A stretch of 64,000 bases of DNA from Escherichia coli (GTDB lineage: Bacteria > Pseudomonadota > Gammaproteobacteria > Enterobacterales > Enterobacteriaceae). The notes below the pieces were generated by a model that saw only the letters and a program-made list of their open reading frames with translations, made no database searches and was not told where the DNA came from. The stretch is taken from the NCBI RefSeq assembly GCF_013315695.1, contig NZ_CP054353.1. One strand, given 5' to 3'. A program made the translations under genes and the position numbers. The stretch's first letter is position 1. Each line of letters starts with the position of its first letter. Shown one piece after another: positions 1,439 through 35,359 of the stretch.

Positions 1439-1445
1439 TCCCACA

Positions 1446-1998: not shown

Positions 1999-2083
1999 TT
2001 CACCGTTCATTATTAATATCAGCTGATAAAGATAATTGCATCTGCGGGCCGTATGGCTCGCAGTGATTTCACTGGAGAAAAAT

Positions 2084-2584: not shown

Positions 2585-2629
2585 AATATGAACTTTAACT
2601 TTTAGTCATTTTATAAAGAGGACATTTTC

Positions 2630-2921: not shown

Positions 2922-2976
2922 GGTGATGCTGCCAACTTACTGATTTAGTGTATGATGGTGTTTTTGAGGTGCTCCA

Positions 2977-3674: not shown

Positions 3675-3888
3675 GTTGGAGTCATTACCGTGATAAACAT
3701 CCGGTTTCTTCCACCATCGCACCGGACAGGCGACTATGAGGGGACAACGCCGCGCTCCGTTAACGCGGTAAACCCCGGTGTGTATCGTTTTTGATTATCC
3801 CCGCACACTCGCGCAGAGGAGTCTCCCTGTCGGGCTGCGGTCTCTGTTAATGAGGGAATACAGCGACGATACGGCGCATCAACAAAAC

Positions 3889-9074: not shown

Positions 9075-9151
9075 TGGCGCGTTGTACTGGATTCGAACCA
9101 GTGACCGATTGCTTAGAAGGCAATTGCTCTGTCCGGCTGAGCTAACAACGC
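9075..9151 (-). tRNA. tRNA-Arg (anticodon UCU)
   Basis: Manual fold of the reverse complement: acceptor GCGTTGT/ACAACGC, D-arm GCTC/GAGC, anticodon stem ATTGC/GCAAT with loop CTTCTAA, T-arm ACTGG-TTCGAAT-CCAGT, discriminator G, CCA encoded. Confidence 0.8.
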
Positions 9152-9164
9152 AGGATACAGATAA

Positions 9165-9241
9165 TGGACCGCCTTCGGGGACCCGAACTCCGCGCAACCA
9201 GCTTCGAAAGCTGGCGCTCTTTCCTGATGAGCTAATGGCGG
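9165..9241 (-). tRNA. tRNA-like gene, Arg-type (anticodon UCG by manual fold), possibly degenerate
   Basis: D-arm TAGCTCATCAGGAAAGAGC, anticodon stem CCAGC/GCTGG with loop TTTCGAA, CCA encoded; one mismatch in the acceptor stem and one in the T stem; T-loop TTCGGGT is non-consensus. Confidence 0.5.
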
Positions 9242-9248
9242 TATGTGA

Positions 9249-9324
9249 TGGTGGCCCTTGCTGGATTTGAACCAGCGACCTGGCGATTATGAGTCGCTCG
9301 CTCTCACCACTGAGCTAAAGGGCC
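9249..9324 (-). tRNA. tRNA with CAU anticodon, ileX-like (tRNA-Ile2/lysidine type; could be Met)
   Basis: Acceptor GGCCCTT/AAGGGCC perfect, anticodon loop CTCATAA, T-arm GCTGG-TTCAAAT-CCAGC, discriminator A, CCA encoded; closely resembles E. coli ileX from memory. Confidence 0.8.
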
Positions 9325-9373
9325 GGGAGCAGAATAATAATGGTGCGTAATTAATTCTGCAATCTCATCCGTT

Positions 9374-10423
9374 TCAAACGATTAAATCCTGAACTTCCCT
9401 GACTGTCTGCTCAAAACGTCCGGTCTCCAGTTCAACGCCAATCGCACGACGCCCAAGCGCCAGTGCCGCTTTTACCGTTGAACCTGAGCCCATAAAAAAA
9501 TCTGCAACCAGGTCACCCGGACGACTGCTTGCGCTGATTATCTGCTGCAGCATTTCTGCCGGTTTTTCGCACGGATGTTTCCCGGGATAGAACTGCACCG
9601 GTTTATGTGTCCACACATCCGTGTACGGCACCTGCGCCGTCACACCAAAATACCGCCGCAGATGCTTATATTCACTCTGCAGCTCCACATACTGCCGGTT
9701 CAGTGACGTATACGTATCCACCAGCTGGTGGTGGGGCTTTTCCAGTTCACCGCGCTGATGTTTCTCTTCTGCCACCCGGGCAAACAGCGACTGTAATTTC
9801 AGATAATCGCTTTCGTTCGGTAGCTGCCACTGACTGGCACTGAACCAGTGCGACACCATGTTTTTCTTTCCTGTGGCATCTGCAATCTGTTTTGCCGTTA
9901 TCCCCAGGGCAGCGCGCGCATCACGAAAGTAAGAAATCAGCGGGGCCATCACATGCTGTTTCAGTGCACTGCCCTTCGCCGCATACCCGGCATCTTTCGG
10001 ACGATACGGCCCCTGATAATGTTCCGCGAACAGAATGCGCTCTGTGGCGGGGAAATACGCCCGCAGGCTTTCCTTGTTGCATCCGTTCCAGCGTCCGGAC
10101 GGCTTCGCCCAGATAATATGGTTCAGCACACTGAAGCGTTCACGCATCATGATTTCGATATCAGATGCCAGGCGATGACCACAGAACAGGTAAAGACTTC
10201 CGACAGGTTTCAGCACCCGCCAGAACTGCGCCAGACACTGGTCCAGCCACTTCAGGTAATCATCGTCGCCCTTCCACTGGTTATCCCAGCCCTCAGGCTT
10301 CACTTTAAAGTACGGCGGGTCCGTGACTATCAGGTCAACAGAATTTTCGGGTAACGACCGGATAAATTCCAGGCAGTCGGCGTTGATTAACTCACAACTG
10401 GATATTTTTACAGTATTAAGCAT
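9374..10423 (-). CDS. orphan DNA methyltransferase (beta-class N6-adenine/N4-cytosine type)
   Basis: 349-aa product with catalytic DPPY motif near the N-terminus (LIVTDPPYF) and AdoMet motif FFMGSGST near the C-terminus; no adjacent restriction endonuclease gene. Confidence 0.8.
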   Translation of the reverse strand: MLNTVKISSCELINADCLEFIRSLPENSVDLIVTDPPYFKVKPEGWDNQWKGDDDYLKWLDQCLAQFWRVLKPVGSLYLFCGHRLASDIEIMMRERFSVLNHIIWAKPSGRWNGCNKESLRAYFPATERILFAEHYQGPYRPKDAGYAAKGSALKQHVMAPLISYFRDARAALGITAKQIADATGKKNMVSHWFSASQWQLPNESDYLKLQSLFARVAEEKHQRGELEKPHHQLVDTYTSLNRQYVELQSEYKHLRRYFGVTAQVPYTDVWTHKPVQFYPGKHPCEKPAEMLQQIISASSRPGDLVADFFMGSGSTVKAALALGRRAIGVELETGRFEQTVREVQDLIV

Positions 10424-10561
10424 GGATCATTAAGCCTGTCTCTGATAGGCTCATTCTGCTTTTGCGCAAAGCAGTGGGCCTGAGGTTTGCTTGTGAACCC
10501 AACGCATGAGCAGATGGCTGGTGGGTGCCCCTAACACCCACCAGCCGCCCATTTACCACAA

Positions 10562-10587
10562 ATAAAAAAGCCTTCAGGACTGAAGGC
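10562..10587 (-). terminator. intrinsic terminator after the 65-aa ORF
   Basis: Minus-strand hairpin GCCTTCAG-TC-CTGAAGGC followed by TTTTTTATTT; stem overlaps the last codons of the upstream ORF. Confidence 0.55.
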
Positions 10588-10771
10588 GTCTGTAACAACC
10601 GAACTGATAGTCTGCCAGACCCGCCATAACCAGCTGGGTCAGTATTAACTGGCAGCGTTCGCGTGAAAGGTAAGTATTCTGCGCTATCTCCCCGACTGTC
10701 GCCGGTTCGGTAACGCTTAATTCATTAAACACCACTCTGGCGGTTTCTGTCATATCCTGCTGTTTTAGCAT
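10574..10771 (-). CDS. small winged-helix-like protein (65 aa)
   Basis: ATG at 10771 preceded by AAGGAAAAAG; product MLKQQDMTETARVVFNELSVTEPATVGEIAQNTYLSRERCQLILTQLVMAGLADY...; ORF-track ORF extends to 10858. Confidence 0.45.
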   Translation of the reverse strand: MLKQQDMTETARVVFNELSVTEPATVGEIAQNTYLSRERCQLILTQLVMAGLADYQFGCYRRLQS

Positions 10772-10902
10772 GTCTTTTTCCTTTTTCCGGTTAACGTGAC
10801 ATACCAATAACTCTTGTCGAAAAAGCCAGCAAGCTGAAAGACCCGTATTCGCAACCACCAGCGTGTTTACTGTACTGACGCGATTTTGGGCATAAAAAAA
10901 AA

Positions 10903-10925
10903 CCGCCTGACGGCAGTTTTTTTTC
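10903..10925 (-). terminator. bidirectional intrinsic terminator just downstream of Q (tR'-like)
   Basis: Short GC hairpin CUGCC-GUCA-GGCGG flanked by A8 and T9 runs. Confidence 0.5.
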
Positions 10926-10929
10926 TTAC

Positions 10930-10985
10930 TTTGCCATCGCGTACAAAATCGGCAAAATATCAGATTTATATGAAACGTACGCTAT
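10930..10985 (-). promoter_or_regulatory. candidate late promoter PR' region
   Basis: Minus-strand TATAAA hexamer about 20 nt after the Q stop with weak TCAATT 17 nt upstream; position analogous to lambda PR'; not verified. Confidence 0.25.
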
Positions 10986-11675
10986 TTAATTGACTTTTGC
11001 AATATCTCGTCGTGAAAAAGTCGCTTTTTGTTGCGCTCTTATTTTCACGGTGCAAATCACAGATTCTCTATCGAGACTCTTAAAAATATCGCACATCTCA
11101 CGCCAGTAGTTCGCATAATTATGGCTCCAGTTATCAGGCTTAACTCCACACAGTCTGGCAAGCTCCTGTCTCTGGTAGACCTCACACCCGGTAATCCATC
11201 CTCTGACATCCTGTGCCGCCAGCCAGATCAACTTCTTCACGCGCTCCTGCGTTTTCCCTGCAATTTTTCTGGTGCCGTACCGGGTTTTAAATTCATTCCA
11301 CACCCACTGCGTTATCGCGATCTGATATTCCCAACAAATACTCCCGCTGTAACACCACAACAACCAGGCTTTATGATGTTCTTCAAGAGACAGAACAGCC
11401 CGCCGCCACGATGATGTCGAAAACTCAACCGGACTGACGAGAGGAATTGACACCCCCTTCGCCAGCGATTGCTTTCCCGGGATTGGTGGATTATCCCGCG
11501 TTATCATTTTTCCAGTCACTTCATCGCGGTACCGGATTTTTTTACGCCTGTAACGCCCTGTATCAAACATGGCATTCTCCTGCCAGGCCTCAAGCTGCCC
11601 TTTTGTTGATCCACTCAAATCGGCGGTGGCAATCATGAGTTGCTCACGAACAAACTGTAAATACTGGTTATTCAT
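10986..11675 (-). CDS. putative late-gene antiterminator Q
   Basis: 229-aa ORF in the canonical position (after rusA, before the terminator-rich late operon); Cys-rich central region; the family assignment is by position and my recall only. Confidence 0.55.
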   Translation of the reverse strand: MNNQYLQFVREQLMIATADLSGSTKGQLEAWQENAMFDTGRYRRKKIRYRDEVTGKMITRDNPPIPGKQSLAKGVSIPLVSPVEFSTSSWRRAVLSLEEHHKAWLLWCYSGSICWEYQIAITQWVWNEFKTRYGTRKIAGKTQERVKKLIWLAAQDVRGWITGCEVYQRQELARLCGVKPDNWSHNYANYWREMCDIFKSLDRESVICTVKIRAQQKATFSRRDIAKVN

Positions 11676-12037
11676 GCGTACTCCAGTTCTGTGATTTTTA
11701 TCCCCAACCGCCCACCAGGAACAAGCTGACCGCGCACAATATTAATTTCATCAAACTGCTCGTCGTCTATGAGCAGCCCCGCATGCGTCAGTACATCCAG
11801 TGGTGCCTTCAGGATATTGTCCAGGTCACGACGGCGCTTATCCGGTGGCTCTGCAATAATTTCTATTGCCGGCCTTCCGGACAGGTTTAATTTCAGTTGC
11901 TGCTGGCGAACAATAAGCGCCACATCACGGCGATAACGCTCACCGACTTTTGATACAAAATATGTGCTGCCACGACGTCGCCAGTAAGTGTTCACCGTTG
12001 GCGGGTAAGGCAAAACAAATTCTATGCGTTCAGTCAT
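11672..12037 (-). CDS. rusA: RusA-type Holliday junction resolvase
   Basis: 121-aa product MTERIEFVLPYPPTVNTYWRRRG...DKRRRDLDNILKAPLDVLTHAGLLIDDEQ... matches the RusA pattern. Confidence 0.8.
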   Translation of the reverse strand: MTERIEFVLPYPPTVNTYWRRRGSTYFVSKVGERYRRDVALIVRQQQLKLNLSGRPAIEIIAEPPDKRRRDLDNILKAPLDVLTHAGLLIDDEQFDEINIVRGQLVPGGRLGIKITELEYA

Positions 12038-13093
12038 TTATGCTTTCCACTTCAGAACACCCGAATTTCTCGCGTGCATTAAAAAACGAATCAGCAACAA
12101 CAGCTGGCTGCCGTGTTTTTCTTCAAAATCTTTTACCCCGGCGTGTAGTTCGCTATGGCATTTACGGCACAGCGGAATAACAAACAAATCATCAGCCTTT
12201 GTTCCCATCCCTCCCAGTCCATGACCAATGATGTGATGCGGATCATCTGCCTGATTGCCACACGTCATGCATTTCTGCGTTTTTACCCAACGCGTGTATA
12301 CAGGCATCTCTTCCCGTTGTGATTTCTGGCGCTGGAGATACTGAGCCGGTGACTCCGGATCAACGGCAATGCTGACCACCGTCTTTTCCTGTGGCGGGTT
12401 TTGCTGGTGGGCGTGAGGCAGCGGCGCAAGATTTTTTGTGCGCTGCTTCAGTATGCTGGTGGCGGTCTGCTCTCCCGGTACGATGTCGCTTTCACGGTAC
12501 ATTGAGCGGATTTTTTCCGCACGCAACCCCAGCGAACGACGTAATACCGCTTCCGGTAGCGCGTCCGCCACCTGATTGCGGACCGCCCACCAGGATAATT
12601 CAGCCAGCGATAATTCCCGTTCCTGCGAGCCATTCATTGCATGGCGTATGACGTCAATCATCCATGCAGACAGGTTTTGGTGAGCAAGTTGCCCGAGTGA
12701 TTCGGAGGTCTGGTCGCGCAGCTGGTTGTCGCAGTGCCAGCACAACACCATTGCGCCGGTACCATAACGGTGAATGACGGTTTCACTGTGGTGATAATCG
12801 CCGTGTGGCCACTGGCAGGATTTAACATGGCGCAGTAACCAGTCAGACAATGCGCCAGCGCCACCAGCAGCACGAATCACTCGTTCGTCGCTGAAAAATG
12901 GCAGTAATGATTTATCCTCCGCCAGCGGCTGGCGAACGGCAGGAACGACCCCGGACGGCAGATTACGCATGCTTTTCGGTTCCGGCTCCACCAGTACCCG
13001 GGTATTGTGGAATACCGGCATGGATTCACGGCCCGGCTTAACGATCACCAGCCCGAGTTCCGGTACCAGAACAGGTCGAAGTAATACCCGCAC
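12038..13093 (-). CDS. DUF968-type phage protein (YdfU-like) with C-terminal HNH/zinc-finger-like motif
   Basis: 351-aa product; C-terminal CMTCGNQADDPHHIIGHG...CRKCHSELH motif. Confidence 0.6.
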   Translation of the reverse strand: MRVLLRPVLVPELGLVIVKPGRESMPVFHNTRVLVEPEPKSMRNLPSGVVPAVRQPLAEDKSLLPFFSDERVIRAAGGAGALSDWLLRHVKSCQWPHGDYHHSETVIHRYGTGAMVLCWHCDNQLRDQTSESLGQLAHQNLSAWMIDVIRHAMNGSQERELSLAELSWWAVRNQVADALPEAVLRRSLGLRAEKIRSMYRESDIVPGEQTATSILKQRTKNLAPLPHAHQQNPPQEKTVVSIAVDPESPAQYLQRQKSQREEMPVYTRWVKTQKCMTCGNQADDPHHIIGHGLGGMGTKADDLFVIPLCRKCHSELHAGVKDFEEKHGSQLLLLIRFLMHARNSGVLKWKA

Positions 13094-13094
13094 G

Positions 13095-13367
13095 TTACCT
13101 CCAGATGCGTTGCTGGAATGTGCGGGACGGACGCGGTGGGCGTTCAGAGTAAGGAAGCCTGACGGAGATTATCCAGTGACGATAATCGAGGCTGAGGGCT
13201 TTCTTAATCTCGTATCCGCGTCTGCGGTAGTTATGAATTAGCCATTCGGCCTGTTCTTCAGTACATGGTGGGTGTTGGTACCAGTCGGTTTTAAATGCGT
13301 GTGAACGCCGCCCATGCCGGATGGCAAGGTCGGTATCAGAATTGTGAAATTTGGTTTTGTGCGCCAT
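13095..13367 (-). CDS. hypothetical phage protein (90 aa), position of Qin rem
   Basis: ORF between hok and the DUF968 gene; no recognised domain. Confidence 0.4.
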   Translation of the reverse strand: MAHKTKFHNSDTDLAIRHGRRSHAFKTDWYQHPPCTEEQAEWLIHNYRRRGYEIKKALSLDYRHWIISVRLPYSERPPRPSRTFQQRIWR

Positions 13368-13432
13368 CTGTTTTCTCTGCTGGCGCAGCAGGTGTCAGGT
13401 GTTCAGGCTGACGTGCGAATTGTAAACCAGAA

Positions 13433-13466
13433 TGCCAGAAAAAAACAAAACCCGCCGAAGCGGGTT
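13433..13466 (-). terminator. intrinsic terminator downstream of hok
   Basis: Minus-strand hairpin AACCCGC-UUCG-GCGGGUU followed by a U-rich tract. Confidence 0.6.
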
Positions 13467-13534
13467 AAGTGCGGGTGCGTTGAGGATGCCTGACACATCA
13501 GAGGTGGCGAGGGATTTCTCCCCCGCCAGGTCTC

Positions 13535-13690
13535 TTACTCCTCAGGTTCGTAAGCTGTGAAGACAGCGACCTCCGTCTGGCCGGTTCGGAGTCGTACCTC
13601 GCAGAGGTCTTTCCTCGTTACCAGTGCCGTCACTATGACGGTTAAACAGATGACGATCAGGGCGATTAACATCGCCTTTTGCTGCTTCAT
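13535..13690 (-). CDS. hok: Hok/Gef-family type I toxin (HokD-like)
   Basis: 51-aa product MKQQKAMLIALIVICLTVIVTALVTRKDLCEVRLRTGQTEVAVFTAYEPEE; the ORF-track ORF carries a 19-codon in-frame upstream extension. Confidence 0.85.
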   Translation of the reverse strand: MKQQKAMLIALIVICLTVIVTALVTRKDLCEVRLRTGQTEVAVFTAYEPEE

Positions 13691-13927
13691 AGCCTGCTTC
13701 CCCTTGCCTTTCGGCACGTAAGAGGCTAACCTACATTTGTGAGACATAGATTGGGCCTCAGATTAATGTTAAGCGTCTTGCAGGACGCGAAATGTTAACT
13801 GGGGCTTTTCTCTATCTGCCTTTCAGTGTTCATGCCTGAGACAGATAGCCTCAAGCACCCGCAGCCATTCTACTTAACTCACGTCACCTCGCCAATATGA
13901 AATCAATCAGAAAGGTGATCCATAAAA

Positions 13928-14614
13928 TCACTCCTTCTCTTCTTTTCCGTAGTGGAGTTGGCCAATTTTGATAAGAGGGCGTCCCTGAGATTTGCGGTGT
14001 AGATTGGTATCGCGCAGAGAATACACACAGCCACAATATTCCTGCTGATAGAATTTTTCGCGCTTGCTGATTTCAATCATACGGGACGAGCCGCCCTGCT
14101 TGCGCCAGTTATAATCCCAGTACACCATACCCGGATAATGCGCAACAGCTCGCCGCCCACACTCGTTAACCTGCTGCATATTTTTCCAGCGTGAAATGCC
14201 CAGTGAACTGCTGATCACACTGAAACCATTTTCAGCAGCGTACAACGCTGTCCGCTCAAAACGCATGTCAAAACACATGGTACAACGGATCCCCCTCTCA
14301 GGCTCCCATTCCATTCCTTTGGCACGTTCAAACCAGTTGTCGGTGTCGTAATCAGCATCGATAAACGGCACGCCGTGTTGTTCAGCAAAGCGAATATTTT
14401 CATCCTTACGAATTAAATACTCTTTCTGAGGATGAATGTTCGGGTTGTAGAAAAAGATGGTGTAGTCGATTCCCGAGGCCTGAAGCGCCTCCATCACTTC
14501 ACCGGAACATGGAGCACAGCAAGAGTGCAGTAGTAGTTTGTTTGCCCCGTTTGGGAGCTCCAATTTAGGCCGTTTGAAATCAGCAATAGTCATAAATATT
14601 TTTATTGGGGTCAT
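13928..14614 (-). CDS. QueH-like (DUF208) epoxyqueuosine reductase homologue
   Basis: 228-aa product with N-terminal [11 protein letters not shown] motif and further Cys motifs (CTMCF, YCGCVY) characteristic of the QueH/DUF208 family; true start may be the Met 7 codons downstream. Confidence 0.6.
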
Positions 14615-20017: not shown

Positions 20018-20588
20018 TTCACCCTCCTGAGGGTTGGTAATTAAGGAGTTCTCCACGGGTCAGGTGGAGTGCGTGCGCCGGACACGGGTGAGCATCCGGC
20101 ACTGACAGCTTACTGAAAGGATATGTCCCTGAAAAGTCAGGGCATAACGCGAAAGCGCACGGCGAAATTGGTCTCTCTGTACGGTGTCGTTAAATTTAGT
20201 TCGACCGTGCGCTTCCGGTTGTGGCACTCCGCGAAATGGCGCGGCGGTAAGTATGGCTGGGGTTTCCTCCATTGCTCCAGAAAATGCACCGGGTTGTCAG
20301 GTTGACCATACGCTTAAGTGACAACCCCGCTACAACGCCCTCTGTTATCAATTTTCTGGTGACATTTGGCGGTATCAGTTTTACTCCGTGACTGCTCTGC
20401 CGCCCTTTTTAAAGTGAATTTTGTGATGCGGTGAATGCGGCTATGCGCACGCGGAACAGTTAAAGCAGTAAGGCGGTATTTTACGGGCGTAACGAGCATC
20501 AACTAACCCGGCGTTAATTGTTAACTGGTTAACGTCACCTGGAGGCACCAGGCACTGCATCACAAAATTCATTGTTGAGGACGCGATA

Positions 20589-20777
20589 ATGGAAACGTTA
20601 TTACCAAACGTTAATACGTCTGAAGGTTGTTTTGATATTGGTGTTCTGCTCAGTAACCGGGAGTTTACTGAAGATGCCATTAATATGAGGAAATATGAGC
20701 CTTATCTGCTCAATGATAATTCCATACTTTCCCGAATTGCTCTTCTTGAACTTGGTATTTTCGGAGAACGTCAATGA
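20589..20777 (+). CDS. hypothetical small protein (62 aa)
   Basis: AT-rich ORF with GAGGA upstream; stop overlaps next start (ATGA). Confidence 0.4.
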   Translation: METLLPNVNTSEGCFDIGVLLSNREFTEDAINMRKYEPYLLNDNSILSRIALLELGIFGERQ

Positions 20778-20962
20778 CTTCAGCATTTGCACTGATGATG
20801 ACGGTTTTTCTTATAACGGGTGAATCACAGAATGTGATTACCGGAATTTATGCAAGTAAAGAATCCTGCCTCCAGGCAAGAGACGAGCAAAAAATTTCTG
20901 GTGAATGCCTCCCGCTAAAAAAAGTATCGCTGTACCTGAATAACGAAACACCGGCTGGATAA
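20774..20962 (+). CDS. hypothetical small protein (62 aa) with N-terminal hydrophobic segment
   Basis: Translationally coupled to the preceding ORF; N-terminus MTSAFALMMTVFLITG is signal/TM-like. Confidence 0.4.
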   Translation: MTSAFALMMTVFLITGESQNVITGIYASKESCLQARDEQKISGECLPLKKVSLYLNNETPAG

Positions 20963-21057
20963 CCCTCCAGCCATATTAACACCATACCAACGGATTAAAA
21001 ATGCCAGCAATGGCAGGGATTCGTTCACCCTGAAATCTGTAATGAGGTTAAAACAAA

Positions 21058-23529
21058 ATGAGTAAGGTCTTTATTTGCGCTGCTATTCCTGATGAACAGG
21101 CCATAAAAGAAGATAGCGCTGTTGCGGTGGCCACTGCCATTGAAGCTGGTGATGAGCGTCGCGCACGCGCAAAATTTCATTGGCAATTTCTGGAGCAATT
21201 CCCTGCAGCTCAGGACTGCGCTTATAAATTTATTGTCTGTGAGGATAAACCCGGCATACCCCGCCCTGCCCTCGATTCCTGGGATGCTGAATATATGCAG
21301 GAAAACCGCTGGGATGAGGAGTCTGCTTCCTTTGTCCCGGTTGAGACTGAATCCGATCCGATGAACGTCACTTTTGACAAGCTGGCCCCTGAAGTACAGA
21401 ACGCTGTCATGGTTAAGTTCGACACATGTGAAAACATCACCGTTGATATGGTTATTAGCGCACAGGAATTGTTGCAGGAAGACATGGCAACATTCGACGG
21501 ACATATCGTTGAAGCGTTGATGAAAATGCCAGAAGTTAACGCCATGTATCCGGAGCTTAAGCTGCATGCCATCGGGTGGGTTAAGCATAAATGTAAGCCT
21601 GGTGCCAAATGGCCCGAAATTCAGGCAGAGATGCGCATCTGGAAAAAACGTCGCGAAGGTGAACGTAAGGAAACCGGAAAATACACGTCTGTTATTGATC
21701 TCGCCCGCGCCAGAACCAATCAACAGCACAGTGAAAATTCAACAGGAAAAATCAGCCCGGTCATTGCTGCCATTCATCGCGAATACAAGCAGACATGGAA
21801 AACACTGGATGACGAACTGGCCTACGCTCTCTGGCCTGGTGATGTGGATGCCGGAAACATTGACGGCAGCATCCATCGCTGGGCAAAAAATGAAGTTATC
21901 GACAACGACCGCGAAGACTGGAAGCGTATCTCGGCATCAATGCGCAAACAGCCTGATGCCCTTCGCTACGACCGCCAAACTATTTTTGGCCTTGTCCGTG
22001 AGCGTCCGATCGACATTCACAAAGATCCCGTAGCACTGAACAAATATATCTGCGAATACCTGACGACAAAGGGCGTGTTTGAGAATGAAGAAACAGACCT
22101 GGGCACTGTTGATGTTCTCCAGTCATCAGAAACACAAACTGATGCAGTGGAAACTGAGGTATCTGATATCCCAAAAAATGAAACCGCGCCGGAAGCTGAA
22201 CCATCTGTAGAGCGTGAGGGGCCGTTCTATTTCCTCTTCGCAGATAAGGACGGAGAAAAATGCGGTCGCGCAAACAAACTTTCTGGTCTGGATAAGGCAC
22301 TGGCTGCTGGCGCCACTGAAATCACAAAAGAAGAATATTTTGCCCGAAAAAATGGCACATACACGGGCTTACCGCAAAATGTAGATACCGCTGAAGATTC
22401 AGAACAACCAGAGCCGATAAAAGTTACCGCTGACGAAGTAAACAAAATTATGCAGGCAGCCAATATCAGCCAGCCTGACGCCGATAAGTTGCTTGCTGCA
22501 TCACGTGGTGAATTTGTTGAAGGGATTAGTGACCCGAATGATCCGAAATGGGTTAAGGGGATCCAGACCCGCGATTCTGTGAACCAGAACCAGCATGAAT
22601 CGGAACGGAACTACCAAAAAGCGGAACAAAACAGCCCAAATGCGTTACAAAACGAGCCAGAAACGAAACAGCCTGAACCAGTGGCGCAACAGGAAGTGGA
22701 AAAAGTCTGCACCGCCTGCGGTCAGACCGGCGGCGGCAACTGCCCTGATTGTGGCGCGGTGATGGGCGACGCAACATACCAGGAAACATTCGATGAAGAG
22801 TATCAGGTTGAAGTTCAGGAAGATGATCCGGAGGAAATGGAAGGCGCTGAACATCCACACAAGGAGAACACTGGCGGCAATCAGCATCACGATAGCGATA
22901 ATGAAACTGGCGAGACGGCAGATCGCTCAATTAAGGTGAACGGTCATCACGAAATCACATCCACCAGCAGGACGTGTGACCATCTAATGATCGACCTTGA
23001 AACCATGGGAAAAAATCCTGATGCCCCGATCATCTCAATAGGTGCAATATTTTTCGATCCGCAAACCGGAGATATGGGACCGGAATTTAGTAAGACTATC
23101 GATCTGGAAACTGCTGGCGGAGTCATTGATCGGGACACCATTAAATGGTGGCTTAAGCAATCACGCGAAGCGCAATCTGCCATTATGACCGATGAAATCC
23201 CGTTAGATGATGCACTGTTACAATTGCGGGAATTTATCGACGAAAACTCCGGTGAATTTTTTGTTCAGGTTTGGGGAAATGGAGCCAACTTCGACAACAC
23301 GATTTTGCGCCGTTCATACGAACGGCAGGGGATCCCCTGCCCGTGGCGTTACTACAACGATCGCGATGTACGCACAATCGTTGAGCTGGGGAAAGCCATA
23401 GACTTCGATGCCAGAACGGCTATTCCATTCGAAGGTGAGCGCCATAATGCACTTGATGACGCCCGTTACCAGGCAAAATACGTTTCAGTTATCTGGCAAA
23501 AACTGATCCCGAGTCAGGCTGATTTTTAA
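21058..23529 (+). CDS. prophage exonuclease (823 aa) with C-terminal DnaQ-like DEDDh 3'-5' exonuclease domain
   Basis: C-terminal motifs MIDLETMG (Exo I), GNGANFDNTIL (Exo II), HNALDDARY (Exo III); central zinc-ribbon-like CTACGQTGGGNCPDCG; long acidic region; early-left operon position of recE. Confidence 0.6.
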   Translation: MSKVFICAAIPDEQAIKEDSAVAVATAIEAGDERRARAKFHWQFLEQFPAAQDCAYKFIVCEDKPGIPRPALDSWDAEYMQENRWDEESASFVPVETESDPMNVTFDKLAPEVQNAVMVKFDTCENITVDMVISAQELLQEDMATFDGHIVEALMKMPEVNAMYPELKLHAIGWVKHKCKPGAKWPEIQAEMRIWKKRREGERKETGKYTSVIDLARARTNQQHSENSTGKISPVIAAIHREYKQTWKTLDDELAYALWPGDVDAGNIDGSIHRWAKNEVIDNDREDWKRISASMRKQPDALRYDRQTIFGLVRERPIDIHKDPVALNKYICEYLTTKGVFENEETDLGTVDVLQSSETQTDAVETEVSDIPKNETAPEAEPSVEREGPFYFLFADKDGEKCGRANKLSGLDKALAAGATEITKEEYFARKNGTYTGLPQNVDTAEDSEQPEPIKVTADEVNKIMQAANISQPDADKLLAASRGEFVEGISDPNDPKWVKGIQTRDSVNQNQHESERNYQKAEQNSPNALQNEPETKQPEPVAQQEVEKVCTACGQTGGGNCPDCGAVMGDATYQETFDEEYQVEVQEDDPEEMEGAEHPHKENTGGNQHHDSDNETGETADRSIKVNGHHEITSTSRTCDHLMIDLETMGKNPDAPIISIGAIFFDPQTGDMGPEFSKTIDLETAGGVIDRDTIKWWLKQSREAQSAIMTDEIPLDDALLQLREFIDENSGEFFVQVWGNGANFDNTILRRSYERQGIPCPWRYYNDRDVRTIVELGKAIDFDARTAIPFEGERHNALDDARYQAKYVSVIWQKLIPSQADF

Positions 23530-23593: not shown

Positions 23594-23842
23594 ATGGCAA
23601 GACTTATTCTGCTCACTGAGTGGGCAAAAGAGGAATTCAGTGAACCGGTCCCTACTCCGAGTACGTTAAGTAAATACGCTAAAGCCGGAATGATATTTCC
23701 TCTCCCCAAAAAAGTTGGAAGACGCTGGCGAGTGGATCCGCAAGCTCGCTTTGTCGGAATGGTAAACAAGCCGGAGGTGATCGCCACAGATCACCCTGCT
23801 TTGAAGAGGATACTGGAAGATGGCGCGCCCGCGAAAATATAA
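23594..23842 (+). CDS. xis: excisionase (Xis-like)
   Basis: 82-aa ORF immediately upstream of and overlapping the integrase gene; contains ...GMIFPLPKKVGRRWRVDP... Confidence 0.6.
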   Translation: MARLILLTEWAKEEFSEPVPTPSTLSKYAKAGMIFPLPKKVGRRWRVDPQARFVGMVNKPEVIATDHPALKRILEDGAPAKI

Positions 23843-24950
23843 AACCGATGTTCCGGGATTATCTCCGTATTTTGACAAAAGAAATAACAAAGTTTACTGG
23901 CGTTACAGGCATCCCATAACAGGCAAAAATCACGGTCTCGGCAGTATTGACCAGAAACTGGCAGAAACTATTGCAGCAGAAGCGAACAGCCGTCTTGCCC
24001 GGCAGCAAATGGAACAAATGCTCAGTCTGCAGGAGAAAATTATTAGTGATACCGGCGGTTCATCAACCGTTACCATTTTTCTGAATAATTACAGAAAAAT
24101 TCAACAGGAAAGATATGAAAACGGCGAGATCAAACTCAACACGCTGAAACAGAAAGCAGCTCCTCTCAGGGTATTTGATGAACGTTTTGGCACCAGACCG
24201 TTAGATGCCATAACCGTAAAAGATGTGGTATCAGTACTGGAAGAGTACAAGGCCAGAGGACATAACAGAATGGGACAAATTTTCAGGAAAGTACTGATCG
24301 ATGTTTTCCGGGAAGCTCAGCAAACGGGCGATGTCCCGCCAGGCTTTAACCCTGCAGAATCGGCAAAAAAACCGCAGGTGCGGATATCAAGACAGCGACT
24401 GACTTTTGATGAGTGGATGATGATTTATAACGCAGCGGAAAAGGATGGTTACTTTTTACAGCGCGGTATGCTGCTGGCACTGATGACAGGCCAGCGCCTT
24501 TCAGATATTTGCAAAATGCAATTTTCGGATATCCGGGATGGTTATCTTCATGTCGAACAGCAAAAAACAGGAACCCGGATTGCCATCCCTCTGGCTCTGC
24601 GTTGCGATAAATTAAATCTCACCCTGGATGATGTGGTGTCATCCTGCCGCGATTGCGTTCTTAGTCCGTGGCTATTGCACCACCATCACGCGAAAGGGAC
24701 AGCTAAGCGCGGCGGGATGGTTAAGCCAGCAACATTAACCGTTGCATTTAAAAAAGCCCGGGATTCTGTGGATTACAACTGGCGTGCTAATGGCACCCCT
24801 CCCTCTTTCCATGAGCAGAGATCTTTATCAGAGCGATTGTTCAGAGAGCAGGGGGTTGATACCAAAATTTTGCTAGGCCATTCGAATCAAAAAATGACCG
24901 ATATTTACAACGACGCACGCGGTAAGGAATGGAAAAAACTGGTCATTTGA
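23820..24950 (+). CDS. int: tyrosine site-specific integrase (lambda Int family)
   Basis: 376-aa product; C-terminal catalytic-domain pattern (...RLSDICKMQFSDI...HEQRSLSERLF...LLGHSNQKMTDIY...) consistent with a tyrosine recombinase. Confidence 0.9.
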   Translation: MARPRKYKTDVPGLSPYFDKRNNKVYWRYRHPITGKNHGLGSIDQKLAETIAAEANSRLARQQMEQMLSLQEKIISDTGGSSTVTIFLNNYRKIQQERYENGEIKLNTLKQKAAPLRVFDERFGTRPLDAITVKDVVSVLEEYKARGHNRMGQIFRKVLIDVFREAQQTGDVPPGFNPAESAKKPQVRISRQRLTFDEWMMIYNAAEKDGYFLQRGMLLALMTGQRLSDICKMQFSDIRDGYLHVEQQKTGTRIAIPLALRCDKLNLTLDDVVSSCRDCVLSPWLLHHHHAKGTAKRGGMVKPATLTVAFKKARDSVDYNWRANGTPPSFHEQRSLSERLFREQGVDTKILLGHSNQKMTDIYNDARGKEWKKLVI

Positions 24951-29069: not shown

Positions 29070-29221
29070 ATAAATTAAATATTATTTAAATTCAAAGCAA
29101 TAACGAAAGACAGTCAACATAATCAATAATAAAGGGCGCATTTAAGTACACATTAATCTAAGCGCCCCTTTTTTTTCGCTACGACTTATACTTTCAGTCT
29201 GACATCTGGCTGGAGGTTTCT

Positions 29222-29479
29222 ATGTGCGGACGCTTTTCACAGTCAATGACGCGTGAAGACTATCTCGCCCTTCTCGCAGATGAAGTCGAGCAAGACATTC
29301 CATATGACCCTGAACCGATCGGACGTTTCAACGTTGCGCCAGGCACCAAAGTTCTGCTTCTGAGCGAACGTGACGAGAAACTCCATCTTGATCCAGTTTT
29401 CTGGGGATACGCCCCGGATGGTGGGATAAACCTGGATTTTTACACATACCAAAGACAGATTAGATACTCTACTAATTAG
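29222..29479 (+). pseudogene. 5' fragment of an SRAP/YedK-family gene (about 70 codons), truncated
   Basis: MCGRFSQSMTREDYLALLADEVEQDIPYDPEPIGRFNVAPGTKVLLLSERDEKLHLDPVFWGYAP then unrelated AT-rich sequence and a stop; full-length family members are about 220 aa. Confidence 0.6.
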
Positions 29480-29587
29480 ATTTTAAACTCATGATTAGTA
29501 AGAGAGACTACCATGATTTATTTAACCAAAATGTCATTTTGTGATATTCTGCATAAAAGTTCATTATTCTAGAGATAGAGCATTAAT

Positions 29588-31381
29588 ATGAGTATCGGTT
29601 TGAGCAAAGTCGTTACAAGATATAAAAACTTAAAGTTGAAATCATATGTTTTCGACATTGTCAACGTTATGTTTTTATTGTACTTATTTTGTTTTCTAAA
29701 TCAGTCAATAGTTATCATAGGAAATATTGAACCGCCTAAAGAGTTAATTGGTGCAATATTGAATTTCATCTGGCGTTCATCCCCCATTTTGTTTATTTAT
29801 TTGTTATTTAGAATAATAAACATTCCAATTTTTCTATGTTCTTATTTATCAGGCATCGCAATTATAACATTGATGTTTGTGAACAGTACTAAAATGGCGT
29901 TAACCGGTGAGCCTTTATCATTTAATGACATTGTTTCTGGATTCAATTTGAGTGTCGCAGGAAAATACCTCAACTTATCATCCATTACTTACTCTGTCGC
30001 TATTCTAATTGGCGCAATAATCTCAATCCTACTTAGCAAAAAAACGGTCACAACAAGAAAAAATTATATATCGTTATTTCTTTTAATTATCATTACGATC
30101 CCCTTTTCATTCTACCCCTATATTGGAACCATTTTTAGCCCTAACAATAGGATTTCTGAAATCATAAACTCCAGCGCGAACAACTTAAATATAAAATATA
30201 TTTACTGGAATTGGTCTCAAAATATTGGCGTTAATGGCTTGCCAATGCATATAATACAAACAAGTGTCAGAAAATCTGTACCACATGCAACTGATGCAGA
30301 ACAATTAAGATATTTAGATGAAAAAAGATCTTTAGTATCCACTCATATAAAAAATAAAACCATTATTTATGTTTTATGTGAATCATGTTGGTATGATAAA
30401 AAAAACTTCCGAGAAAATTTCAAACCTGTTATTGATGAAGGTTACAGTGAATTACGGGCCATCTCACCAGTTTACGGTGGAGGTACCGCAAATGCCGAAT
30501 TTGAAATGCTGACAGGACTACCAAGTAATTCAGATAAAATATCAGGAATCATCTATCAAGAATATTCAGATGCATTCAAACCAAAAGTTGACGCATTACC
30601 TAATGCCCTGAAAAACAAAGGCTATATTACTTTCGCAGCACATAATTACCAAGCAGACTTTTGGTATAGGAATAAAATTTACCCTAAATTTGGATTTGAT
30701 AGATTTGATAGCATTATTAATATGGGAGATTTACCACCAGAGTATAGCAGTATTAAAAAACCATGGCAGTGGCAACCTGATGACTACCTGCTTTACAATG
30801 CAGCATTAAAAGCCATCCAAAATGCAGGAAACAAAGATATTTTTGTACATTTGATCACTATGTCAACTCATGGTCCTTATCAACACATTAATGATTATGG
30901 TGAAGGTGTTTATACCTATGAGATTAATGAGGCAGTCAAAAGATTCGTTCAATTTTCACAGCAAGTAGAAAAAATAGATCCAAATGCTGTAATCGTCTTT
31001 TACGGTGACCATAAACCACCACTAAATAAATATTTCGTCGAAAATGGGGTGCTACCAAGTAATATTTTCAACAAAATCGGAGAAGAAAAAGATGAAGATT
31101 TCGTCTTTAAAATGAGCACAACCCCACTCGATTTTGGTGATGTTCCTGTGCTTATTAAATCAAATGATAAAGACGCCATTAAAAAATTCATAACCGACGC
31201 CAATGGAAAACCTTTTTTCTGTGTATCTTCATTAGTTGATAAACATTTCATTCAATCTGGATTGGTATCATTTAATCACAACGCAAAGCATGTCTGTGAA
31301 AACAGTGATAACTTTAATTATGATAAGTTAATTAACATGACCCCGTCGTGGATTTATTCAATGTCATTATTTCACGATTAG
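29588..31381 (+). CDS. sulfatase-superfamily membrane protein (LTA-synthase / phosphoethanolamine-transferase-like), AT-rich
   Basis: 597-aa product; N-terminal multi-TM region, C-terminal domain with YVLCESCW and STHGPYQH motifs; codon usage strongly AT-biased. Confidence 0.6.
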   Translation: MSIGLSKVVTRYKNLKLKSYVFDIVNVMFLLYLFCFLNQSIVIIGNIEPPKELIGAILNFIWRSSPILFIYLLFRIINIPIFLCSYLSGIAIITLMFVNSTKMALTGEPLSFNDIVSGFNLSVAGKYLNLSSITYSVAILIGAIISILLSKKTVTTRKNYISLFLLIIITIPFSFYPYIGTIFSPNNRISEIINSSANNLNIKYIYWNWSQNIGVNGLPMHIIQTSVRKSVPHATDAEQLRYLDEKRSLVSTHIKNKTIIYVLCESCWYDKKNFRENFKPVIDEGYSELRAISPVYGGGTANAEFEMLTGLPSNSDKISGIIYQEYSDAFKPKVDALPNALKNKGYITFAAHNYQADFWYRNKIYPKFGFDRFDSIINMGDLPPEYSSIKKPWQWQPDDYLLYNAALKAIQNAGNKDIFVHLITMSTHGPYQHINDYGEGVYTYEINEAVKRFVQFSQQVEKIDPNAVIVFYGDHKPPLNKYFVENGVLPSNIFNKIGEEKDEDFVFKMSTTPLDFGDVPVLIKSNDKDAIKKFITDANGKPFFCVSSLVDKHFIQSGLVSFNHNAKHVCENSDNFNYDKLINMTPSWIYSMSLFHD

Positions 31382-31731
31382 TATCTAGAAAATAATTGTA
31401 ATAAATCATCATTAATTATGTAGACGCCTAAAATTAGGCATCTACATTTTATTAGAAAAGAGGTTGTCCTGACTAGGTTGTGGAAATGTGCATCGCATAA
31501 ATCAAGGCTATAGAGCATGAAAGTGCGTTCTTCCCCCTCTACCATTGATAAATATTTAAAAGTGCTCACGCTGGATTCGATCCAGGCATTAGCATCTTTG
31601 AGTGAGAATTCCCAGTTAACTTTGCTCAACCCCTGAACAAATCGCTGTGTAGTGACGGTCTTCCGGCCATTCGGCTCTTGCTGTATCGAAGAATACCAGG
31701 CTATTTCAATATCGCTGCGTCGTGGCATCAT
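31378..31731 (-). CDS. hypothetical protein (117 aa), possibly a gene fragment
   Basis: ATG pair with GAGGG upstream; divergent from the dinI-like gene; ORF-track ORF extends to 31977. Confidence 0.35.
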   Translation of the reverse strand: MMPRRSDIEIAWYSSIQQEPNGRKTVTTQRFVQGLSKVNWEFSLKDANAWIESSVSTFKYLSMVEGEERTFMLYSLDLCDAHFHNLVRTTSFLIKCRCLILGVYIINDDLLQLFSRY

Positions 31732-31771
31732 TACGCCCTCTCTTGAATACCGGATAAAAACACAGTATAAA

Positions 31772-31791
31772 TACTGTATATACACCCAGTA
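31772..31791. promoter_or_regulatory. LexA (SOS) box upstream of the dinI-like gene
   Basis: TACTGTATATACACCCAGTA: CTGT-N8-CCAG, one mismatch from the CTGT-N8-ACAG core; overlapping palindrome ACAGTATAAATACTGT just upstream. Confidence 0.6.
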
Positions 31792-31806
31792 AAGAGGCAA
31801 TGAGCA

Positions 31807-32034
31807 ATGTTCGTGGAACTCGTTTATGGCAAAAGGAATTTTGATGGACTGCCCGGTGCAAAAGATATCATTCTGGGCGAGTTGACCAAGAGGGTTCACC
31901 GGATTTTCCCCGGCGCTGATGTCCGGGTTAAACCGATGATGACATTGCCGGCGATCAACACTGACGCCAACAAGCATGAGAATGAACAGATAAGCCGTAC
32001 TGTTCAGGAAATGTTTGAAGAGACTGATATGTAG
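31807..32034 (+). CDS. DinI-like protein
   Basis: 75-aa product MFVELVYGKRNFDGLPGAKDIILGELTKRVHRIFPGADVRVKPMMTLPAINTDANKHENEQISRTVQEMFEETDM; AGAGG RBS; LexA box upstream. Confidence 0.7.
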   Translation: MFVELVYGKRNFDGLPGAKDIILGELTKRVHRIFPGADVRVKPMMTLPAINTDANKHENEQISRTVQEMFEETDM

Positions 32035-32122
32035 CTGTTTTCAGATTAAACGCCTTGAACCGTCACACTGATTAAGTACAATCCGGCGTGGTTGCGGCTT
32101 CCAGATTATAAGAATGATTCCC

Positions 32123-32550
32123 TTACTCACTTTTCAGCGCATTCACTTCTTCTCGTAATTCACTGAGTTCGTTCATTAGTACCAGAATCGCTTCATGATG
32201 CAACGCTGCCGCAACGCCGTAAGTATCTGGAGAGAGTACTCCTTCCACCATAGTTCCATCAGGAAGTTGACGATCACCTCCCTCAGTTACTGCCTGGGGG
32301 AAGATTTTCTTAACATCCTGCGCGATAAACCCAATCCCCCATTGTCCGGTATCTTTTCGCGTCCAGGAACAACCTTTTAGCATTTCCATCTTACTGAGCG
32401 GGTCTCCAATTCTGGACACTCCATCTTTCAGGCGGCCATCTGAATTCGGAACCCATGCTCCAGGCGCTACAGCGTTACCAGTTGATTTCATAAAGCTCCA
32501 TGTGGTTCCTGAGCTTGCGTTTGCTACCTGAATATTCCCTGATAAAGAAC
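32123..32550 (-). pseudogene. C-terminal fragment of a phage tail-fibre protein (intramolecular chaperone-type domain), 5' end removed by IS insertion
   Basis: ...GQWGIGFIAQDVKKIFPQAVTEGGDRQLPDGTMVEGVLSPDTYGVAAALHHEAILVLMNELSELREEVNALKSE; the frame runs upstream into the IS inverted repeat. Confidence 0.6.
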
Positions 32551-33473
<923 letters not shown>

Positions 33474-33602
33474 GTATCGGTAGAAAAAAGAAACTTTACC
33501 AGCCTGACTGATCCTTGCGTTCAGCCCATGAGAATCTGAAATGGTTTCGATATCATCTCGTTTCTTGCCCAGGGACTTCCTGAGCTTTGTGTCGGTAATC
33601 AT
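33474..33602 (-). pseudogene. N-terminal fragment (43 codons) of a P4-type integrase, cut by the IS element
   Basis: [43 protein letters not shown] resembles the DUF4102-type N-terminus of P4-family integrases; frame runs into the IS right end. Confidence 0.5.
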
Positions 33603-34105
33603 TGAATGTGTACACATCTGGCTTGCGAGTACGCAAAAGTGTACACAAAACTCGTTGCTCAAAGATACCCGCAATGTAACACTTGTACTCGAAGTGTGAT
33701 GGCTTAGGGGCTGAAAGGCAGATGGCGTAAGGGTTCAACGTAACAGAACGTTTTTATGCGAAATTCTTCGAAATGGTCTGAATGACATTTTAAGAAAGTG
33801 TTCTGAATAGAAATTCAATATTTAAGGGCACGGTTTTTGCAACCGTGTTCTTGTTTGGCCTTTCCTTATAGGTCGGTCAGTGCATTCACCACCACAAGCA
33901 GATAATAACTTTATCTGTATTTCTTTATATGATGTGAACATATTCAGGAAAATGCCCTTTCCTGACGCAGAGTTGCTCACTCAAAACCTTTGATTACTGC
34001 GGATAAAGTCATCTACTATTGTTTAACACATTCACGCGCTGCATGTATGTTCAGAAAATGTGCACGTTGAGATAATTAAACAAAATTGTGGTTACAGAGG
34101 TATCA

Positions 34106-35359
34106 GTGAGTCACTGGACTACATTCAAACAAACAGCAACAAAGTTATGGGTGACCCTACGGCACGACATTCTCGCGCTGGCCGTCTTTTTAAATGGATT
34201 GCTTATTTTTAAAACAATCTATGGTATGTCGGTCAATTTGCTTGATATTTTCCATATCAAAGCATTTTCAGAGCTGGATCTCTCCTTGCTGGCAAACGCC
34301 CCACTATTTATGCTCGGCGTATTTCTTGTCCTGAACTCCATTGGCTTACTGTTCCGGGCAAAGCTCGCATGGGCAATCAGTATCATTTTGTTGTTGATAG
34401 CGCTAATTTACACTCTGCATTTTTATCCCTGGCTGAAATTTAGTATTGGATTTTGCATTTTTACGCTGGTGTTTTTGCTGATACTGCGCAAAGACTTCTC
34501 CCACAGTAGCGCAGCAGCCGGGACAATTTTCGCATTTATTAGTTTCACGACGTTACTGTTTTACTCCACTTACGGTGCGCTTTATTTAAGCGAAGGTTTT
34601 AATCCGCGAATAGAAAGTTTGATGACCGCGTTCTATTTTTCGATAGAAACCATGTCAACCGTCGGCTATGGCGATATTGTCCCTGTTTCTGAATCAGCAC
34701 GATTGTTCACTATTTCGGTCATTATTTCCGGCATTACCGTTTTTGCCACCTCTATGACCTCAATTTTTGGTCCGCTTATCCGCGGGGGATTCAACAAACT
34801 TGTAAAAGGAAACAATCATACAATGCATCGTAAAGATCATTTTATTGTTTGCGGACATTCGACTCTCGCCATCAATACGATCCTGCAACTGAATCAACGC
34901 GGACAAAACGTTACGGTTATCAGCAACTTGCCTGAAGATGATATCAAGCAACTTGAGCAACGCTTAGGCGATAACGCCGATGTTATCCCCGGTGACAGTA
35001 ATGACAGTTCAGTGTTAAAGAAAGCGGGAATCGATCGTTGCCGGGCCATTCTGGCGCTGAGTGATAACGATGCAGATAACGCGTTTGTTGTACTCTCGGC
35101 AAAAGATATGAGCAGTGATGTCAAAACAGTTCTCGCCGTCAGTGATAGCAAAAACCTGAATAAGATTAAGATGGTACATCCGGATATCATTCTCTCACCA
35201 CAACTGTTTGGCAGCGAAATTCTGGCGCGAGTTTTAAATGGTGAAGAGATTAATAATGATATGCTCGTTTCAATGTTGTTGAACTCCGGTCATGGCATTT
35301 TCAGCGATAACGATGAACAAGAAACGAAAGCTGAAAGTAAAGAATCGGCGCAAAAATAG
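34106..35359 (+). CDS. kch: voltage-gated potassium channel Kch
   Basis: GTG start; product VSHWTTFKQTATKLWV... with selectivity filter TVGYGD and C-terminal RCK-like domain. Confidence 0.9.
   Translation: MSHWTTFKQTATKLWVTLRHDILALAVFLNGLLIFKTIYGMSVNLLDIFHIKAFSELDLSLLANAPLFMLGVFLVLNSIGLLFRAKLAWAISIILLLIALIYTLHFYPWLKFSIGFCIFTLVFLLILRKDFSHSSAAAGTIFAFISFTTLLFYSTYGALYLSEGFNPRIESLMTAFYFSIETMSTVGYGDIVPVSESARLFTISVIISGITVFATSMTSIFGPLIRGGFNKLVKGNNHTMHRKDHFIVCGHSTLAINTILQLNQRGQNVTVISNLPEDDIKQLEQRLGDNADVIPGDSNDSSVLKKAGIDRCRAILALSDNDADNAFVVLSAKDMSSDVKTVLAVSDSKNLNKIKMVHPDIILSPQLFGSEILARVLNGEEINNDMLVSMLLNSGHGIFSDNDEQETKAESKESAQK

Follow-up and report, generated by a model that had tools for sequence, protein, structure and literature searches.

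The window analysed here, a 64,000-nucleotide stretch of Escherichia coli DNA (contig NZ_CP054353.1 of the RefSeq assembly GCF_013315695.1), contains at positions 21058..23529 a gene for an 823-amino acid (aa) protein that belongs to the early-left operon of Rac/Qin-type lambdoid prophages and is built of modules. Up to residue ~625, this protein consists of a non-catalytic scaffold that is also found in RecE, and a DEDDh exonuclease domain takes the place of the PD-(D/E)XK nuclease. Its orthologue in the K-12 Qin prophage, ydfE, is a pseudogene, whereas the gene here is intact, and among the relatives the absence of recT goes together with the swap of the nuclease. The comparative evidence leans to a role in DNA-end processing or recombination, and away from both a RecET-like two-component recombinase and a defence nuclease of the EcD/HREX type. 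In more specific terms, we give about an even chance to the explanation that we favour, namely that the protein is a 3'-end DNA exonuclease of lytic development, accessory to host-dependent recombination or replication and not one half of a RecET or Red pair. The gene belongs to an already annotated family with a sensible domain assignment and is not a new kind of system; it bears on how lambdoid phages that lack an annealase and are rich in Chi sites manage recombination-dependent growth.

Domain architecture of the 823-aa protein

The open reading frame (ORF) starts with ATG, occupies exactly the above coordinates on the + strand, and can be divided as follows:

21058..23529, + strand: whole gene, chimeric exonuclease, 823 aa (ORF listing; PHROG 2082 'exonuclease', matching residues 1-823 of 823)
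21058..21837, + strand: N-terminal module, aa 1-260, Pfam YdfE_N type (AlphaFold2 (AF2) model with a confident globular part at aa 1-205)
21838..22467, + strand: middle module, aa 261-470, YdfE_C type, homologous to the middle of RecE (BLASTP, NCBIfam NF007259, AF2)
22468..22932, + strand: RecE-like linker region, aa 471-625, ~85% identical to Rac RecE 455-591 (BLASTP)
22522-22551, + strand: GISDPNDPKW motif, aa 489-498, within the RecE-like linker region
22708-22752, + strand: Cys4 motif, aa 551-565, within the RecE-like linker region
22981..23496, + strand: predicted DEDDh 3'-5' exonuclease domain, aa 642-813, DexA/Rv2179c family (Pfam PF16473, T4 DexA match, alignment)

The precomputed Pfam families on relatives are YdfE_N (PF27430), YdfE_C (PF27432) and PF16473. 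In the AF2 model, the middle module comprises a helical domain (aa 245-340) and a small beta/alpha domain (aa 385-435), with disordered linkers between them.

BLASTP aligns aa 262-625 with residues 278-591 of K-12 Rac RecE (E 5e-62), and the final ~150 residues of this stretch, which include GISDPNDPKW, the Cys4 motif and the acidic tail, are ~85% identical. The similarity stops about where the PD-(D/E)XK nuclease domain of RecE starts: RecE 592-866, which contains this domain, produced no BLASTP match to the 823-aa protein and no tblastn match in the window. The NCBIfam RecE model NF007259 matches aa 246-625 only, over model positions 271-602 of 877 and with 285.6 bits against a cutoff of 1269, that is, without reaching the equivalog cutoff for RecE/exonuclease VIII. 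The original prediction, made from the sequence without database searches, had placed the gene where Rac encodes RecE; the gene order (dicF-dicB-ydfD-exo-xis-int here vs kilR-ydaE-racC-recE-recT-...-xisR-intR in Rac) agrees with this placement, and the case is stronger than was claimed. Judging from the alignments, the link to RecE is one of homology over aa 262-625 and not of position alone, and within that comparison the nuclease domain alone differs. Two further features described at that stage, a CxxC...CxxC arrangement upstream of the nuclease domain and a long acidic region, are both present, the first as C551-TA-C554 ... C562-PD-C565 (CTAC...CPDC) and the second as the acidic tail or linker that follows the Cys4 motif (aa 566-625); aa 551-600 contain 14 D+E and 0 K+R.

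A DEDDh domain had been proposed for the C-terminal ~200 residues, and Pfam assigns this part of the protein to a DEDDh family, not to a RecE-type PD-(D/E)XK C-terminus: PF16473 (Rv2179c-like) spans aa 642-813 (model positions 2-177 of 177, E 5.2e-67), with RNase_T as a weak secondary match only. Among solved structures, the sole sequence match was exonuclease A (DexA) of phage T4 (8kel/8ken, E 1.5e-6), in which D7/E9, D119 and H186/D191 align with the five catalytic residues of the domain, D646-x-E648 (Exo I), D746 (Exo II) and H796-x4-D801 (Exo III). Of the motif spellings given originally, DxE was correct; 'NxxFD' is in fact NGANFD, and 'HxxxD' is Hx4D (HNALDD, H796...D801). The catalytic pentad is kept in at least 97% of 208 homologous domains, and the ratio of nonsynonymous to synonymous substitution rates (dN/dS) for the DEDDh domain is ~0.24 (39 distinct close alleles). 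At the level of sequence, the active site is intact and under purifying selection, and membership in the family predicts a metal-dependent 3'-5' exonuclease activity.

Residues 1-256 are 95% identical to K-12 Qin ydfE, which IS2E cuts after codon 256, and the same genes (DicF, dicB, ydfD) precede the truncated copy in Qin in the same order. Matches to the gene are present in 4798 of the 5426 complete E. coli genomes (88%) and cover at least 80% of it in 3536 genomes; the full-length 823-aa form dominates. The sequenced phage Tritos (OV696610) has a full-length gene that is 98% identical and shows the same dicF-dicB-ydfD-exo-xis-int order. These data bear on the view that the protein is an inactive relic of a domain shuffle, passively carried in prophages. 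Such a relic could be suspected from the defective state of the prophage described below and from K-12, which carries a truncated pseudogene only, but the number of genomes with at least 80% of the gene, the retention of the pentad together with the dN/dS value, and the presence of the gene in Tritos all speak against it, and we consider this explanation extremely improbable.

Interchangeable C-terminal domains on a RecE-like scaffold

The initial homologue search was filled by relatives with 88-93% identity; the diversity of the family was taken from representatives of clusters at 50% identity, and segments were mapped by BLASTP. P0123 consists of Rac RecE residues 1-454 (92-99% identical) joined to a DEDDh domain that is 98% identical to the query, and its gene is directly followed by xis and int. 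P0161 and P0139 possess a PD-(D/E)XK (DUF3799) C-terminus and are followed by RecT or a RecT-like gene (PHROG 561, E 3.5e-101). In P0137, P0153, P0154, P0181 and P0224, the YdfE_N/YdfE_C scaffold carries a C-terminal domain of ~270 aa with the motif KKSLTDALKKALSLLGF, whereas in P0130, P0147 and P0175 the C-terminus is a short conserved non-nuclease segment (…LTIAALHGLCANPA…). Representative loci are:

L098:5001-7337 and L097:5001-7226: P0137 and P0153, scaffold relatives with a probable Rad52-like C-terminus
L006:5001-7109: P0130, scaffold relative with the short non-nuclease segment

The KKSLTDALKKALSLLGF-type domain shows a weak match to Pfam Rad52_Rad22 (E 0.078). Its AF2 model (predicted local distance difference test score, pLDDT, 69) shows a long beta-hairpin sheet that is preceded and followed by a helix, and a Foldseek search with this model yielded human RAD52 (8rjw_G) as the single outstanding match (E 2.4e-3, prob 0.99; the next match at E 0.1). 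The C-terminus of the P0137/P0153 type is probably a Rad52-like annealase. A Sipho_Gp157 gene follows both P0137 and P0153, and a weak Gam-like gene precedes P0137. The PHROGs label of these Rad52-like relatives is 'exonuclease', probably a name inherited from relatives. The nuclease-less scaffold proteins of the P0130 type, directly followed by xis and int, may correspond, along with P0147 and P0175, to the 'RecE-2' proteins without a nuclease domain that are mentioned in PMC12315714.

The GISDPNDPKW sequence is almost invariant in Rac RecE and in the relatives with DEDDh, PD-(D/E)XK and nuclease-less C-termini, and among the Rad52-like proteins it is found in P0156 only; from its conservation, it looks like a short binding motif for some partner. 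The Cys4 motif is shared by Rac RecE and all 120 close relatives but is missing from several distant ones. One scaffold is naturally joined to a RecE nuclease, a DEDDh nuclease, a probable Rad52-like annealase, or no nuclease at all.

These combinations open up a broader, speculative view that we rate as rather improbable. The N-terminal ~600 residues of RecE would be a general docking platform of Rac/Qin-type prophages for interchangeable DNA-end effectors, with the DEDDh form suited to annealase-less, Chi-rich prophages, where it would ready DNA ends (e.g., by blunting 3' tails) for the host RecBCD-Chi-RecA pathway. If true, this would be a phage-encoded helper of host recombination and not a replacement for it. 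We did not find in the literature an explicit picture of the RecE scaffold with interchangeable effectors. The N-terminal two-thirds of RecE improves linear-linear recombineering, and a scaffold that occurs with three DNA-transaction effectors, with recT tracking the nuclease type, offers a concrete way into this part of the protein.

A Chi site at 22961, at the junction between the RecE-like and DEDDh parts, was considered as a possible cause of the domain swap; this idea was rejected because no more than 3 of 80 relatives retain the site and Rac recE lacks it.

Absence of an annealing partner

It had been noted originally that no RecT/Bet/Erf-type gene lies near the exonuclease gene, and all subsequent searches agree. 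In the whole window, tblastn with Rac RecT, the RecT-like protein, lambda Bet, P22 Erf, epsilon34 gp36 and the Rad52-like domain gave no match at E<1e-3, and the same was true of lambda Exo, Gam, Abc2 and the single-stranded DNA-binding protein (SSB). No annealase was detected either when PHROG families were searched with ten ORFs, of which seven are located around the early-left region and three in the early-right operon, and the RefSeq annotation of the complete version of the prophage in NZ_OZ547117.1 likewise includes none, with only a RusA resolvase in the nin region. Between the repressor gene and the exonuclease gene, there is no ORF of more than 140 aa and none that matches an annealase family.

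The same pattern was observed in relatives. We compared 80 IMG/VR loci in which the C-terminal half matches the query at 95-100% identity (57 with a YdfE-type and 21 with a RecE-type N-terminus) with 80 loci retrieved with the RecE nuclease domain. None of the former has a gene for a single-strand annealing protein (SSAP), lambda Exo, Gam, Abc2 or SSB within 6 kb, and all 80 of the latter have RecT, including the one locus in which the RecE nuclease is combined with a YdfE-type N-terminus; because the 80+80 loci are closely related among themselves, these counts are read as a consistent pattern and not as 160 independent events. Absence of recT goes together with the swap of the nuclease.

These findings weigh on the possibility that the protein belongs to a true two-component recombinase with an unrecognised annealing partner, which would be either a small ORF nearby or the N-terminal 625 residues of the protein itself. 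The position of recE and the RecE scaffold are in favour of such an arrangement, as is the fusion of the same scaffold to a Rad52-like domain in some relatives. A two-component recombinase has, however, a 5'-3' exonuclease beside an SSAP, and here the polarity expected from the family is 3'-5' and an SSAP was not found. The known exonuclease-annealase mechanism (Red, RecET) uses the opposite polarity and would not be served by the 5' overhangs that a 3'-5' exonuclease leaves. Moreover, the interval between the repressor and exonuclease genes contains no annealase-like ORF, the predicted model of the N-terminal part has no Rad52-, RecT- or RecA-like fold, and the annealase count among the related loci is 0 of 80. 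We regard a hidden two-component recombinase as very unlikely.

The early-left operon, the prophage and its Chi sites

The genes that surround the exonuclease gene, and the Chi sites of the prophage, are:

20354-20405, + strand: DicF small RNA (Rfam, 77 bits)
20589-20777, + strand: dicB (RefSeq annotation of the identical locus)
20774-20962, + strand: ydfD-like DUF1482 gene (RefSeq annotation of the identical locus)
23594-23842, + strand: excisionase gene, xis (ORF listing, RefSeq, PHROG 629)
23820-24950, + strand: integrase gene, int, at the prophage end, adjoining chromosomal ompW
4314, 4361, 4763, 9718, 9724, 10517, 10538, 10855, 12403, 12455, 12861, 17897, 22961 and 23550: Chi sites (octamer search)

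Directly downstream of the exonuclease gene are xis and int, with no recT-type gene in between. A crude consensus scan detected no sigma-70-like promoter at 20962-21058, and therefore the gene is probably co-transcribed with dicF, dicB and ydfD from the repressor-controlled early-left promoter; with such co-transcription, the protein would be made only on induction and not in the quiet lysogen.

Positions 1-3689 of the window are chromosomal (trpB to yciE) and end in IS1; at 3690, the sequence jumps into the lysis region of a prophage. Because NZ_OZ547117.1 has ~25 kb of terminase, head and tail genes that the window lacks, with the gap starting beside the IS1 end (3689), the prophage is a defective dicF-dicB (Qin/Rac-type) remnant at ~3690-24950 that keeps the lysis, nin, replication, immunity and early-left regions. 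The complete relative in NZ_OZ547117.1 contains 14 Chi sites in 45.4 kb vs ~1.7 expected from base composition; they are confined to the early/lysis half, the structural-gene half having none, the phage top strand carries 10, and 3 fall no more than ~2 kb from the right cos end. The remnant in the window has 14 Chi octamers in 21 kb vs ~0.65 expected from base composition; the phage top strand corresponds to the - strand here and carries ten of them.

According to a recent survey, 22% of the enterobacterial lambdoid phages have no Rec module, and such phages are Chi-abundant and so would depend on RecBCD (PMC12315714). The prophage studied here fits this class: the early-left operon contains no gene for an SSAP, SSB, a Rec-module nuclease or an anti-RecBCD protein (its sole nuclease gene is the DnaQ-type one beside xis and int, a location that does not qualify for a Rec module in that paper), and the Chi sites are many, mostly on the top strand and clustered rightward, as counted on NZ_OZ547117.1 and not by the clustering statistic of that paper. 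In the absence of an annealase, SSB or anti-RecBCD gene, and given the wealth of correctly oriented Chi sites, the prophage probably relies on the host RecBCD-RecA pathway.

Under the explanation that we favour, the gene would be transcribed on induction with dicF-dicB-ydfD from the repressor-controlled early-left promoter, the RecE-like scaffold would bring the exonuclease to its substrate, and the metal-dependent exonuclease would remove nucleotides from 3' DNA ends. In a prophage that relies on host RecBCD-RecA, it would serve as an end-processing accessory, for example, by trimming 3' tails. T4 DexA acts on 3' DNA ends and has roles in double-strand-break repair during intron homing and in the breakdown of host DNA (PMC12153337).

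Several considerations weigh against this explanation. The polarity and the substrate (DNA or RNA, single- or double-stranded, modified or not) are deduced from membership in the family only. A structural comparison of the predicted model of the N-terminal scaffold revealed no recognisable fold relative, and that the scaffold targets DNA ends is a guess. The Rad52-like assignment in the scaffold relatives leans on a model of moderate confidence and a single Foldseek match, and the loci in which the recT pattern was counted are mutually close. With a promoter scan as crude as ours, the gene could also be expressed in lysogens, and its retention in a remnant without virion genes, which is no longer able to form particles, is equally compatible with a role beneficial to the host. 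Furthermore, DnaQ-type 3'-5' exonucleases usually inhibit homologous recombination, and genes of this type are not counted as members of Rec modules unless contiguous with other Rec-module genes (PMC12315714).

Apart from the early-left region, the prophage carries accessory genes on the - strand at ~9075-14614, namely, hokD and the genes for tRNA-Arg, tRNA-Arg and tRNA-Ile (~9075-9324), for a DNA methyltransferase (9374-10423) and for a protein with the annotation epoxyqueuosine reductase QueH (13928-14614). Beyond tonB/yciI, at ~29200-34500 of the window, there are a frameshifted gene for an SOS-response-associated peptidase, an LTA-synthase family gene with a low GC content (~36%) and pieces of a second prophage, also degraded, namely, a DinI-like gene, a tail-fibre fragment, an IS3 transposase and an integrase arm-binding fragment.

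Defence and host takeover as alternative functions

The original prediction had named, in hedged form, a recombination exonuclease, an anti-defence nuclease and a defence nuclease as possible functions. The DEDDh domain might act in anti-phage defence by the prophage, digesting incoming phage DNA that contains 5-hydroxymethylcytosine (5hmC) and shielding the lysogen from T-even phages. The study in which the DexA structure was solved describes an E. coli homologue, EcD, that digests 5hmC DNA and protects against T4 ('HREX'); plasmid-borne EcD degrades T4 DNA and protects E. coli (PMC12153337). The domain considered here belongs to the same family as DexA and EcD, and the gene is present in 4798 of the 5426 genomes and is intact in a remnant that has lost all virion genes. 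The neighbouring dicB, when expressed, itself protects against some phages. Were the defence explanation true, a latent nuclease of the DexA type would be present in the majority of E. coli strains.

The details of the sequence, however, point elsewhere. The comparison with HREX was made via DexA residue equivalences only, taken from an alignment with ~23% identity in which loop positions are somewhat uncertain: for the two residues with which DexA contacts 5hmC, the equivalent of W152 is Y766, which varies (Y/S/C/H) in close relatives, and that of D169 is A780 (Ala in 112 of 120 close relatives), and D90, the tetramer-forming Asp of DexA that is not in EcD, is retained as D718 in all 120. In the repressed operon, the gene comes after the toxic dicB, and the promoter scan gave it no site of its own; PADLOC yields a generic CRISPR-associated DEDDh match only (E 1.6e-5), and defence leaves the fusion to the RecE scaffold unexplained. 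Besides, EcD is a different and apparently stand-alone protein, starting with MIDTET and ending with TIPETY according to its cloning primers; a 20-mer derived from a primer matched one unrelated viral contig, and no protein of the collected set has the MIDTET start or the IPETY end. On these residue and operon comparisons, a defence role of the HREX type is not favoured and appears unlikely.

Another possibility is that the protein is a nuclease of host takeover or counter-defence in the lytic cycle, which would degrade host or competitor nucleic acid, or else an immune RNA, small DNA or nucleotide signal. A role in scavenging host DNA is documented for T4 DexA (PMC12153337). According to the Pfam description, Rv2179c, the namesake of the PF16473 family, is an exoribonuclease, so that RNA substrates are possible, and the early-left position places the gene beside the host-manipulating dicF, dicB and ydfD. 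Nevertheless, nothing ties the gene to any particular defence system, a temperate phage has less need of wholesale degradation of host DNA, and the other partners of the scaffold are recombination proteins (the RecE nuclease with RecT, and the Rad52-like domain beside Gp157 and, in one case, a Gam-like gene). We view a takeover function with considerable scepticism, and hold to 3'-end processing in support of host-dependent recombination as the explanation to prefer.

Previous annotation

The novelty implied by the original prediction was overstated. RefSeq annotates the gene as '3'-5' exonuclease' or 'exonuclease', Pfam has the YdfE_N and YdfE_C families, the gene is common in E. coli genomes as detailed above, and related genes have been discussed in 2025 (PMC12315714). 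That work describes lambdoid Rec modules with a DnaQ-like 3'-5' nuclease, for instance gp34 of epsilon34, which was judged a legitimate member, as well as 'sporadic' DnaQ-type genes outside recognisable Rec modules; those among the latter that lie in the early-left operon are usually very near int or near cI. In the literature on Rv2179c-like proteins in prophages and on ydfE, we found no functional study, and the mentions of ydfE are incidental.

Comparison with known systems

The closest parallel is RecE of the Rac prophage, which has the same position in the early-left operon and shares the region equivalent to aa 262-625, including GISDPNDPKW, the Cys4 motif and the acidic linker. The catalytic domain of RecE is a PD-(D/E)XK 5'-3' double-stranded DNA exonuclease (Pfam DUF3799), whereas the protein described here carries a non-homologous, predicted DEDDh 3'-5' exonuclease. 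The two proteins also differ in the N-terminal part, the first 260 residues being of the YdfE_N type here and of the Pfam Exonuc_VIII type in RecE, and in that RecE has an adjacent recT and the gene in the window does not.

In the Salmonella phage epsilon34, gp34 is 56% identical to the DEDDh domain, and both genes belong to early-left operons of temperate enterobacterial phages. However, gp34 is a stand-alone protein of 182 aa encoded between the SSB gene and abc2, beside the putative recombination protein gp36, whereas the domain in the window is fused to a RecE-type scaffold and is without Rec-module neighbours.

EcD, like the domain here, is an E. coli DEDDh exonuclease of the DexA family. 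It appears to be a separate small protein, and its signature consists of a Trp and an acidic residue for the recognition of 5hmC and the loss of D90, in contrast to Y766, A780 and D718 of the 823-aa protein.

T4 DexA, of 227 aa, stands alone, has extra loops and is ~23% identical, whereas the DEDDh domain in the window lies behind a scaffold of 640 aa. DexA nevertheless has all five DEDDh residues and belongs to the same catalytic family, and its role in double-strand-break repair and intron homing is comparable to the end-processing role proposed here for the prophage protein.

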